From positions 1 to 32,887 of the forward strand of contig JBOGSD010000015.1 of the NCBI GenBank assembly GCA_050695215.1: a DNA stretch of 32,887 nt, in the 5' to 3' direction. The DNA comes from a bacterium (GTDB taxonomy: Bacteria > Sysuimicrobiota > Sysuimicrobiia > Sysuimicrobiales > Humicultoraceae). The translations under genes and the position numbers were made by a program. The notes under the pieces were generated by a model. It ran no database searches. It saw only the letters and a program-made list of their open reading frames with translations, and was not told where the DNA came from. Shown in pieces: positions 13,488 to 19,166 of this stretch. Numbering within the stretch: the stretch's first letter is position 1; the number at the start of each line of letters is the position of its first letter.

Positions 13488-16329
13488 CTAGCCCAGCGCG
13501 AGCATCGGCCCGGCGAGGGCCATGCTGACGGCTTCCTCAGGGGCGGCGGTCGCCTCCGCCCAGACCACCGTGAACCGGTTCTCCTCAAAGGCACCGCGGA
13601 TAAGGCTGAACGTCCGGTCGAATTCAGGGCGATCGATCGGCGGCATCGAGGAGCCCATCCGGTCTCGCAGCGCCGTGGCGGCGGCGAGTAGCCGCGCCGC
13701 GGCCTCGTAGCGTTCCCGCGATGCCGCCACCAGACACAGCCGCTCCAGGGACTGCGCGATGCCGAGCGGCTCCCCCAGCTCTCGGAACAGGGTCAGGCCC
13801 TCGCGATGCAAAGCGAGCGCCCGCGCGCTGTTGCCCTCGTGATGCGCAACTCGGCCCAGGATGTTGAGGGCCCGCGCGACCACGGCCTTCTGTCCCGTCT
13901 CCCGGGCGAGGGTTAGGGCTTCGTCGGCCAGGTCGCGCGCGCGCGCCCAGTCGCCCCGATCGCAGGCGATCAGGGCGAGGCTGTTGAGGGACGCCGTGAT
14001 CCCGAACCTGTCCTTGAACCCTCGGGCCAGTGCCAGTCCCTCGGCGCAGAGCGCTTCCGCCCGCTCGAAGTCGCCTCGATTTCGGGCAACCAATCCGAGA
14101 GCATCCACCGCTGTTCGCTCACGCCGCCAGTCACCCACCTGCCGACTCAGCTCCAGGGCCTCGGTGCCAAGCGCATCGGCACGGTCGTAGTCTCCCCGGA
14201 GCCGGGCGACGATGCCGAGCAATTCGATCGGGAACGCTAGCTCGCCCAGCTTCCCCGCCTGCCGCGTCAGGCTCAGGCTCTCTTCCAGCAACGTCTCGGC
14301 CCGCGGATACGCTCCCTGCCGGTAGACCAGGATGGCCAGGAAGTTGAGGGAAGCGCTGATCCAGCCCTGAGCGCCCAATGCTCGAAACAGGGCGAGACCA
14401 CCCTCGAGGTGCGCGATTGCCTGCTGATTGTCCCCCTGATGCCAGGCGAGCACCCCCGCGTAGTATTGGACACGTGCTCGGAGGAATGGGGGCGTCTCCT
14501 CGTCTCCGCCCGCGAGGGAAACCTCGAGCCAGTGACGGCCTTCGCTGAAGTGGTCCCTCCGGTTCCAGAATGGAGCCAGGGCTCCGGCAAGCTGAAGGGT
14601 TATGCTGAGATCGTGCCTCGTCCAGGACCACTGCAGGGCTGCCCGAAGGTTGTCGTGCTCCATATCGAACGCTGAGGTCTGCGTATCAACACCACTCTCG
14701 GCGTCCTCAATGATTGTGCGCCGCGCCTCGGCCCAGGCCAGATAGAAGTCCCGTTGCCGGGAACGCCGAGCGTCGTGCTCCCCGGCTTCCAGCAGCCGGT
14801 CGAGCGCGTACTGGCGCACCGTCTCCAGCAGGAGATAGCGCCCCTCCCCGTTGTGTTCCTCGAATAATACGAGCGATTTGTCGACGAGTCTCGTGAGCAG
14901 GTCTAACACTTGGGCGACGTCGAGATCGGATCCCACGCAGACGGCCTCGGCCGCGTCCAGTGAAAAGCCTCCGGCGAAGACGGCCAGCCGCCGCAGCAGT
15001 GTCCGCTCCGGCTCGGTGAGGAGGTTGTAGCTCCAGTCGAGCGCCGCCCGCAGGGTCTGGTGGTGCGGCAGGGCTCCCCGACCACTCCCGGTCAGCAGGC
15101 GGAAACGGTCGTCCAGCCGGACCGCGATTTGTTCCACGGAGAGAGCCTTAACCCGGGCGGCAGCGAGTTCGATGGCGAGGGGGATCCCGTCCAGGCGGCG
15201 GGCGTTTACTGAAGATCGCTCGTTCATTGAACAACCGTACCGCTTCGAACTGGATCAGCTCCTCCGCCGAGGGGAGGCGCTCGACATCAGGCAGCGACAG
15301 CGGGGGCACGGGGTAGGTCAGTTCTCCGGGGAGGCCAAGAGCTTCCCGACTGGTAGCGAGGATCCGCAGGTGGGGACAGCGGCGAAGCATCGTCGCCGCC
15401 AAGTCGGCGCAGGCGGCGGCCAGATGCTCGCAGTTGTCGAGGATCAAGTGCAGGCTCTTCGGCCGCACGAAATCGCTCACCGTATCGATGAGCGACCGTC
15501 CGCCCTCTTCCCGAACCCCCAGGACCGCGGCGACCGTCTGAGGGATCGGCGCGGGATCCGTCAGTGGTGCGAGTTCGGCCAGCCACGCGCCGTCGGTGAA
15601 TTGTCGAAGCACCTCCGCCACGACCTGGAGCGCCAGTCGGGTCTTGCCCGCTCCTCCTATCCCGGTCAGGGTGACGAGACGGGCGGAGGTGAGAAACTCT
15701 CTGACTTCCCCGATCTCCCGTTCCCGCCCGACAAAGGTGGTGAGCTGGACGGGGAGGTTGTGGGGCCGGGCGTCCAGCGACTGCAGTGGGGGAAACTCGG
15801 CCGGCAGTCCCGGAGCCACGACCTGATAGAGGCGCTGAGAGCGCGCCAGGTCCTTCAGACGGTGCAGCCCGAGATCGAGCAAACGCACGTCCGGCGGGAG
15901 ATCGTCGCGGACCAGCACGGCCGTGCTCTCCGACAGCAGGATCTGACCGCCGTGCGCTACGGCGGAGATGCGCGCAGCCCGATGCACGTCGAGCCCGACA
16001 TAGCCCGTTTCTGCGGTAACGGCCTCTCCGGTATGCAACCCCATGCGCACTCGCAACACGATCCCCTCCGGCCACGGATACGCGGCGAGGGCCCGCTGAG
16101 CGTCGATGGCGGCGAAGACCGCGTCCTTCGCCCGGGGGAAGGTGACGAAGAAGGCGTCTCCCTGCGTGTCCACTTCCTGCCCGTGCCGCTCCTGGAGGGC
16201 CGATCGAATCAACCGGTGGTGCGCCGCCAGAACGTCCGGGTACCCGTCACCGAGTGCCTGCAGGAGTCGCGTCGAGCTTTCAAGATCGGTGAAGAGAAAC
16301 GTGGTCGTGCCGACTGGCTGGGGGAGCAT
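13488..16329 (-). pseudogene. Disrupted paralogue of the nucleotide cyclase - STAND/NB-ARC NTPase - TPR protein (two ORF fragments, 15148..16329 and 13488..15227)
   Basis: Fragment 1 carries the cyclase homology domain (TTTFLFTDLESSTRL, DTQGDAFFVTF) and a P-loop (GIGGAGKTRLALQ ... LILDNCEHL). Fragment 2 carries the helical third domain and ~10 TPR-like repeats. Alignment to the intact upstream paralogue shows a ~50-nt deletion between ...FNERAIFSK and RRLDGIPLAIE, which shifts the frame at 15150-15230. Confidence 0.7.

Positions 16330-19166: not shown

Follow-up and report, generated by a model that had tools for sequence, protein, structure and literature searches.

Do two adjacent genes, each encoding a nucleotidyl cyclase domain joined to a STAND NTPase and a repeat sensor, belong to an antiviral defense system or to ordinary signal transduction? 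The question is raised by a gene pair on the minus strand of contig JBOGSD010000015.1 (assembly GCA_050695215.1, family Humicultoraceae, Sysuimicrobiota), and we address it in the window, by which we mean the whole stretch of 32,887 nucleotides that was analyzed (G+C content ~68%). The original prediction described the genes as tandem paralogs, one intact (gene 1) and one broken (gene 2), each encoding an N-terminal class III cyclase homology domain, a central STAND NTPase, and about 10 tetratricopeptide repeats (TPRs), with no DNA-binding domain, and it proposed a signaling or a defense-like module. This description of the pair is confirmed by the Pfam matches, the AlphaFold2 model, and the open reading frames (ORFs). 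We conclude that the genes probably encode two members of a very large STAND signaling family whose output is a class III nucleotidyl cyclase instead of a DNA-binding domain.

Domain architecture and predicted structure

The reported interval holds three minus-strand ORFs, namely 16332-19250, which contains gene 1, and the overlapping 15148-16404 and 13488-15227, which lie in different frames and between which gene 2 is divided. The gene 1 ORF is open upstream of a TTG codon at 19091, through ATG 19166 to ATG 19250. The true start is most likely TTG 19091 and not ATG 19166, because the former matches the position of the ATG in orthologs and because residues 1-27 of the version starting at ATG 19166 are disordered in the AlphaFold2 model. 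The orthologs begin with M-A-D-L-P-T-G, 3 nt past the LigD stop codon, and TTG 19091 lies 5 nt past it. The model, built with 45 homologs and numbered from ATG 19166, has a mean predicted local distance difference test score of 83.8; this numbering also applies to the catalytic residues of gene 1 given below.

In gene 1, Pfam detected the cyclase family Guanylate_cyc (PF00211; E 9e-10, 38.8 bits, cut-off 21.9), the AAA_22/NB-ARC/AAA_16 group, and TPR_12/TPR_10/TPR_MalT. The model resolves a cyclase α/β domain (residues 24-197), a nucleotide-binding domain (NBD; 228-365), a helical domain (382-476), a winged helix (480-556), and an all-helical TPR region (559-940). The features of a STAND NTPase are present, with Walker A (GGAGKT), Walker B (LIVLDNCEH), and GxP (GIPLAIE) motifs and a winged helix after them, all within the nucleotide-binding oligomerization domain (NOD). 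Residues G251/G253/K254, D323-H327, and G422-A426 of these three motifs are invariant across the 45 homologs, and the invariance of GGAGKT, LDNCEH, and GIPLAIE fits a working nucleotide switch.

When the whole gene 1 chain was compared with the PDB using Foldseek, the top match was the archaeal STAND protein PH0952 (6mfv), which has a TPR sensor, followed by the cyclase Ma1120 (TM(target) ~0.9) and then by Apaf-1/CED-4. By sequence, the gene 1 NOD matched AfsR (8k60; E 6.6e-5) best among solved structures, and a segment in the middle of the protein gave weak matches to WHD_ROQ1 and APAF-1-like_WHD. Gene 2 has the same set of domains (PF00211; E 2e-10, 41.0 bits, cut-off 21.9).

Neither protein matched GerE, BTAD, or Trans_reg_C over its full length (Pfam; GerE at E<=0.01), and a search with the isolated C-termini (~90 residues; 91 aa for gene 1) returned only TPR families, with no helix-turn-helix (HTH) domain even at E<=10. 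In the AlphaFold2 model the helices of gene 1 (559-939) end in a TPR cap at the C-terminus, and the model together with the isolated C-terminus search rules out a hidden C-terminal HTH. The claim that no LuxR or BTAD HTH is visible in these proteins therefore holds at both levels of search. The HTH_77 match precomputed by Pfam for homologs maps to the middle of the protein and, by its placement in the sequence, is the STAND winged-helix domain.

Homologs and comparison with characterized proteins

The homolog search yielded at least 8000 scored proteins, all at E<=0.001. The best homologs of gene 1 share 92% identity (L001, the soil metagenome-assembled genome [MAG] GCA_036004665.1) and 79% identity (L002, a 220-kb JGI contig), and below these are hundreds of homologs at 50-65% identity from Armatimonadota, Bipolaricaulota, and unclassified bacteria. 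Among the best 120 of these at least 8000 homologs, GerE was found in one and BTAD in one, with neither in the remaining 118. A scan of one genome per species gave at least 600 matches, including members of Armatimonadota, Chloroflexota, Verrucomicrobiota, Actinomycetota, Eremiobacterota, Ignavibacteria, Gemmatimonadota, and Planctomycetota. Public databases already annotate the architecture, but only under the labels "predicted ATPase/class 3 adenylate cyclase" and "tetratricopeptide repeat protein". Cyclase-STAND-TPR proteins number in the thousands across many phyla, and apparently none of those that lack an HTH has been studied. At other loci the NOD-TPR module is found with non-cyclase N-termini, as expected for a modular signaling STAND.

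The closest characterized relatives are the mycobacterial proteins Rv0386, Rv1358, and Rv2488c, in which a cyclase is joined to a MalT-like ATPase and a LuxR HTH, with TPRs that are clear only in Rv0386; this bears out the comparison with the group in the original prediction. The order of an N-terminal class III cyclase (class IIIc in the Rv0386 group), a P-loop STAND/MalT-like ATPase, and a TPR region is common to both, and the Gln/Asn specificity residues of Rv0386 (DQDN[NS]R) recur in some members of the present family found in the species-level sample. The C-terminus differs, being a LuxR-type HTH in Rv0386 and a TPR cap in both window proteins, and gene 1 has a Lys/Asp specificity pair, not Gln/Asn.

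Next in similarity are PH0952, MalT, and AfsR, in which an arm and a TPR sensor likewise come after a NOD and with which the logic of autoinhibition and oligomerization is presumably shared. They differ in their effectors, which are DNA-binding (ArsR-like, LuxR, and SARP), whereas the effector of the window proteins is an enzyme for a diffusible second messenger. The closest solved cyclase is the minimal class III adenylyl cyclase of the Ma1120/Rv1120c type (4wp9 and related entries; 28-32% identity), which has the same Lys/Asp specificity pair as gene 1 but is a stand-alone catalytic domain with neither a STAND nor a TPR regulator.

Catalytic residues and predicted products

Six class III positions were scored, in this order: a metal-binding Asp, the Lys of the specificity pair, a second metal-binding Asp, the Asp of the specificity pair, and the Asn and Arg of the transition state. 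Gene 1 is canonical at all six (D40 and D83 for metal binding, K79 and D134 for substrate specificity, N141 and R145 for the transition state), and its signature, DKDDNR, is common to 86 of the 116 top homologs that could be scored. D40, D83, and R145 are invariant in the 45 homologs, and their equivalents are present in both genes. On these residues, gene 1 is a predicted adenylyl cyclase.

Gene 2 has the signature DDDGHR, identical in its L001 and L002 orthologs, in which the Arg and the two Asp residues for metal binding are unchanged, and Lys is replaced by Asp, Asp by Gly, and Asn by His. Variant signatures of this kind account for about 20% of the top homologs, and in the species-level sample their share is about 40%; they retain the metal-binding Asp pair and the Arg, with Lys replaced by Asp, Glu, Gly, or Gln, the specificity Asp by Gly or Ser, and Asn by His or Ala. 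The cyclase domain is the most constrained portion of gene 2, with a ratio of nonsynonymous to synonymous substitutions (dN/dS) of 0.10, which indicates a functional variant and not debris. The exchange of Asn for His is no proof of a dead enzyme, since alignment to Ma1120 showed that this active adenylyl cyclase carries Ala at the same position.

Gene 2-type proteins may be cyclases of different specificity (for GTP, for example) or nucleotide-binding pseudo-cyclases, and not adenylyl cyclases, a reading that we put forward tentatively. It draws on the resemblance of the Asp...Gly pair of gene 2 to Glu...Gly in the KDA-to-EGY mutant of Ma1120, which binds GTP (PDB 5d0g/5d0h), on the recurrence of the pattern D-[DEGQ]-D-[GS]-H-R in about 20% of the top homologs, and on the purifying selection acting on the gene 2 cyclase domain. 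However, Asp is shorter than Glu, and a transition-state His is without precedent among the solved cyclases retrieved. The conserved variant residues pose the question of what gene 2-type domains produce; their product is not predictable from these residues and could be a nucleotide other than cAMP, or their function could be nucleotide binding only.

Proposed mechanism

The active site of class III cyclases is formed at an obligate dimer interface. The mechanism that we propose is drawn by analogy from this property and from MalT, PH0952, and Apaf-1, and from these comparisons we infer the ligand, activation, product, and targets; a model of autoinhibition and oligomerization is available for STAND proteins with TPR sensors (PMC6468293). 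In the resting state, an ADP-bound NOD would be held closed by the arm and the TPR sensor. Binding of a ligand, which may be a small molecule, a peptide, or a protein, to the TPR solenoid would lift the autoinhibition, after which ADP would be exchanged for ATP and the NOD would oligomerize. Oligomerization would gather the N-terminal cyclase domains into catalytic dimers, and these would produce a cyclic nucleotide, predicted to be cAMP for gene 1 as judged from its Lys/Asp specificity pair, which would then act on receptors encoded elsewhere in the genome. The family offers a simple model of how a cyclase, with an active site that is formed only in a dimer, could be switched on by STAND oligomerization.

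Several points weigh against the signaling assignment or narrow it. No experimentally characterized cyclase-NOD-TPR protein without an HTH was found in the literature, and no gene for a cyclic mononucleotide (cNMP) receptor was seen in the window. Since about 40% of the members vary at specificity or transition-state positions, cAMP cannot be assumed, on sequence grounds, as the product for the whole family or for gene 2. In addition, cNMP cyclases are listed in the literature among the N-terminal effectors of bacterial NACHT proteins and of other NTPase systems associated with conflict, and given this, a defense role is possible for some clades of the family.

Gene 2 and its lesion

Gene 2 starts 2 nt beyond the gene 1 stop codon (17 nt in L001 and L002), and its orthologs in those two genomes are intact, with lengths of 957/958 aa. 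Three-way DNA alignment with them showed a 47-bp deletion in the window copy, which shifts the frame and removes 16 codons of the helical domain immediately ahead of the GIPLAIE (GxP/GLPL-like) motif. No second lesion was found in gene 2 when it was aligned to the two orthologs. As the rest of the gene is intact, with a dN/dS of 0.23 against its closest ortholog, the lesion is recent or possibly an assembly artifact; gene 2 has probably been inactivated in this genome by a recent 47-bp deletion. The positions of both genes and of their parts are collected in Table 1.

Table 1. Positions of the two cyclase-STAND-TPR genes and their parts in the window
Feature	Position	Strand	Basis
Gene 1, intact cyclase-STAND-TPR protein, ~919 aa	16332..19091	(-)	ORF, Pfam, AlphaFold2, ortholog-based start
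Gene 1 class III cyclase domain	18576..19091	(-)	Pfam PF00211, residue signature, Foldseek
Gene 1 NOD: P-loop NBD, helical domain with GxP motif, winged helix	17499..18527	(-)	Pfam, AlphaFold2, Foldseek
Gene 1 arm and TPR sensor, ~10 helical hairpins, conserved three-helix C-terminal cap	16347..17492	(-)	Pfam, AlphaFold2
Gene 2, paralog ~50% identical to gene 1, one extra TPR pair, pseudogene in the assembly	13488-16329	(-)	Translations, alignment to orthologs
Gene 2 cyclase-homology domain, conserved variant residues	15790..16320	(-)	Pfam PF00211, alignment
Gene 2 junction of the 47-bp frameshifting deletion	~15204/15205	(-)	Three-way DNA alignment with L001 and L002

That the break arose in assembly or sequencing, with both genes functional in the organism, is unlikely, although the assembly behind the window appears to be of the metagenome type, all of its relatives are MAGs, and gene 2 carries a single lesion in an otherwise intact and constrained frame. 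The deletion itself is clean, with well-aligned flanks, unlike a typical homopolymer or short-read error, and no repeat is evident around the junction.

The two genes are 49-50% identical, and each has its own ortholog in L001 and in L002, so the duplication predates the three lineages and a recent tandem duplication is ruled out. The original prediction of tandem duplication with decay of one copy is thus correct as regards the decay, in the form of one recent lesion in gene 2, and needs revision as regards the age of the pair.

Relation between the two genes

A further reading of the pair is an obligate heterodimeric cyclase similar to the mammalian C1/C2 enzymes, in which the two STAND proteins would co-oligomerize, gene 2 would give the "C1-like" half to one composite site with gene 1, and the second pocket would be degenerate and regulatory. 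The two genes are closely spaced in the window as well as in L001 and L002 and are probably co-transcribed, the pairing of a canonical with a variant copy recurs in each of the three related genomes, strong constraint on the cyclase domain of gene 2 shows that it is not decaying, and one further locus, L025, likewise pairs a variant with a canonical copy. However, gene 1 holds every residue required for an active homodimer, loss of gene 2 is tolerated in the window lineage, and the activity of Ma1120 with Ala at the Asn position means that substitution alone does not equal inactivity. Other tandem arrays combine canonical with canonical or variant with variant copies, and variant-type genes are mostly solitary, with no canonical copy within 8-10 kb. 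Arrays of every combination and the mostly solitary variants rule out a systematic canonical-variant pairing as a general rule, and we regard the obligate heterodimer as improbable; a canonical/variant heterodimer is a local possibility only.

Genomic context and selection

In L001 and L002, the gene order is Ku, DUF72, LigD, the gene 1 ortholog (917 aa), the gene 2 ortholog, Ham1/RdgB, RNase PH, a metallo-β-lactamase (MBL) hydrolase, an amidase, Band 7, and a luciferase-like gene. The context of the cyclase pair from LigD to RNase PH is shared by the window, L001, and L002; it is not kept in more distant members of the family, so wider synteny of this kind is ruled out beyond the closest relatives. 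The original prediction had named strict syntenic conservation in all relatives as a mark of an ordinary regulator; such conservation holds for the close relatives and fails for the distant ones. All window neighbors of the pair are housekeeping genes, as are the other genes in the window, which encode cytochrome c maturation proteins (CcmABCF), a spermine-synthase-like protein, NDH-2, DUF885, and a kynurenine-formamidase-type "Cyclase". In most of about 79 distinct loci, no second family gene lies within ±10 kb; 10 of the loci contain copies in tandem or close by. On long contigs, three variant-type relatives stand alone among genes of glycolysis, among genes for an extracytoplasmic function (ECF) sigma/anti-sigma pair and NDH-2, and among GOGAT/PII/Amt genes, respectively.

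Some differences among the close relatives were also observed. L001 carries a third cyclase-STAND-TPR paralog with the DDDGHR signature upstream of Ku (L001:1-2452, minus strand); luciferase-like and DUF885 genes occupy this position in the window and in L002, which amounts to presence/absence polymorphism among close relatives. The segment 16121-21800 is a recombination mosaic relative to L001 and L002, with flanks 87-99% identical to L002, while gene 1 (16721-19120) shares 89-97% identity with L001 and only 74-87% with L002; in LigD, L001 and L002 resemble one another more than they resemble the window. This mosaic could reflect population-level recombination or MAG chimerism.

The dN/dS values are 0.17-0.19 for gene 1 and 0.21-0.23 for gene 2 (0.23 against the L002 ortholog), with 0.18-0.32 in the TPR regions, compared to 0.05-0.22 in neighboring housekeeping genes. 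Both genes are under purifying selection, and the TPR values show no diversifying selection on the sensor. The description of the pair as fast-evolving sensor genes, offered in the original prediction, is not supported by these values.

Assessment of a defense role

Under a defense reading, the proteins would resemble antiviral STANDs (Avs) or Pycsar; the TPRs would sense a phage protein, the NOD would oligomerize, and a cNMP alarm would act on a toxic effector and lead to abortive infection. The tripartite layout of an enzymatic N-terminus, a STAND NTPase, and a repeat sensor follows the Avs plan, and cNMP cyclases belong to the listed effectors of bacterial NACHT and conflict systems (documented in some NACHT clades). 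The tandem arrays in 10 of about 79 family loci, the third paralog in L001 that is absent from the window, and the recombinational mosaicism of gene 1 also speak for it.

We ran PADLOC-DB 2.0.0, which includes models for AVAST I-V, on both proteins, on all 23 other window ORFs, and on 143 neighbors of family genes. The two proteins gave only a generic TPR match and, for gene 1, partial matches to PycC models (best E 4e-6, residues 34-103, ~70 residues), a level expected of any class III cyclase; the cyclase piece of gene 2 matched nothing, and neither protein matched a STAND or Avs model. Among the 23 other window ORFs, the matches concerned a fold of S-adenosylmethionine (SAM)-dependent methyltransferases (mad2), the ABC ATPase CcmA (mad3/mad8/AriA), and a luciferase-like oxidoreductase, all of which are generic-fold cross-hits. 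No cNMP-binding, transmembrane, or TIR effector lies adjacent to the pair in the window, L001, or L002.

The neighbor set comprised the two nearest ORFs of each family gene at 75 loci (143 proteins; PADLOC at E<=1e-10), a test rougher than the 5-kb DefenseFinder test of a 2026 STAND survey (PMC13581612). The 143 proteins fell into 162 Pfam families, none present in more than five proteins, and the most frequent were TPR fragments of the family members themselves; cNMP_binding was not among the recurrent families, and no recurrent partner or effector gene was found. PADLOC returned only scattered singletons, one of which matched TIR effector/PycTIR models (E 2e-19), and we reject a defense island, as the pair, the window ORFs, and the neighbors gave only generic-fold cross-hits. 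A small stand-alone cyclase with PycC-like matches (E 1.5e-12) was observed at L010:4131-4952.

The weak PycC matches and the one TIR-like neighbor are thus the PADLOC results in favor of a defense role, and they stand against PycC matches that are partial and no better than E 4e-6, the missing Avs match, and the missing effector beside the pair. The position between LigD and Ham1/RNase PH is moreover kept in relatives, the TPR sensor too has a dN/dS of about 0.2, and variant-type relatives stand alone among genes such as those for glycolysis, the ECF sigma factor, and GOGAT. Compared with Avs1-5 and bacterial NACHT proteins, with which the effector-NTPase-repeat sensor plan is shared, the window NTPases belong to an AfsR/PH0952/Apaf-like clade and show no Avs model match, defense island, or diversifying selection. 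Pycsar likewise employs a class III-like cyclase domain for a cyclic mononucleotide, but its cyclases are small and stand beside a cNMP-binding transmembrane or TIR effector, while the gene 1 residues specify a purine (adenine).

We consider a defense function of the pair very unlikely. The lack of a recurrent effector or of obvious enrichment among the neighbors, purifying selection, and the ordinary contexts of variant-type relatives argue for an ordinary signal-transduction role and not for a candidate defense system. The evidence fits the signaling half of the original prediction and speaks against its defense-like, Avs-type half, in that no Avs model was matched, the neighbors are housekeeping genes, and no effector recurs among the 143 neighbors. 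For this locus the practical message is negative, in that it should not be counted as a defense candidate.

Neighboring genes and other observations

Ku, DUF72, and LigD (Ku-DUF72-LigD at 19097-23660, minus strand) are followed on the same strand by gene 1 and gene 2, and successive genes are separated by 39, 28, 5, and 2 nt. A sigma-70-like site, TGGACA-16-TATAAT (11 of 12 matches; 23601-23574, minus strand), lies just upstream of Ku and is the only strong one in 12 kb; the number of promoter-like sites is not above chance. The non-homologous end joining genes and the cyclase-STAND pair may form one operon, with the order kept in L001 and L002.

An MBL-fold protein encoded at 10460-11224 (plus strand), 2.3 kb away from the cyclase genes in the cluster MBL-RNase PH-Ham1, has as its best NCBIfam match NF041851, "cyclic nucleotide-degrading phosphodiesterase" (E 9e-40, full length), at 136.6 bits, under the 400-bit cut-off. 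Its orthologs carry a precomputed match to the Pfam family Anti-Pycsar_Apyc1. The same arrangement is found in Mycobacterium tuberculosis, where the cAMP phosphodiesterase Rv1339 lies beside rphA and rdgB. The protein is a candidate cNMP phosphodiesterase; its adjacency to a cyclase-STAND gene did not recur in the other loci (143 neighbors, 75 loci). It is far-fetched, in our estimate, that the five genes from Ku to gene 2 form one operon whose canonical and variant cyclase STANDs co-oligomerize, sense a stress or invader cue tied to DNA breaks or dormancy, and emit one or two cyclic nucleotides (possibly not cAMP for the variant), with the Rv1339/Apyc1-like phosphodiesterase resetting the signal.

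Between Ham1 and the 3' end of gene 2, the window has an insertion of ~870 bp relative to L001 and L002 (12616-13485), with a lower G+C content (0.64). It bears an ORF for a SAM-dependent methyltransferase (12637-13440, plus strand), which had no homolog in any retrieved locus. The cytochrome c maturation cluster at 435-4954 (minus strand) appears complete (CcmF, a CcmC-like protein, CcmB, and CcmA), and the region also contains two luciferase-like monooxygenases and two DUF72-type genes, apparently of an ordinary housekeeping nature.

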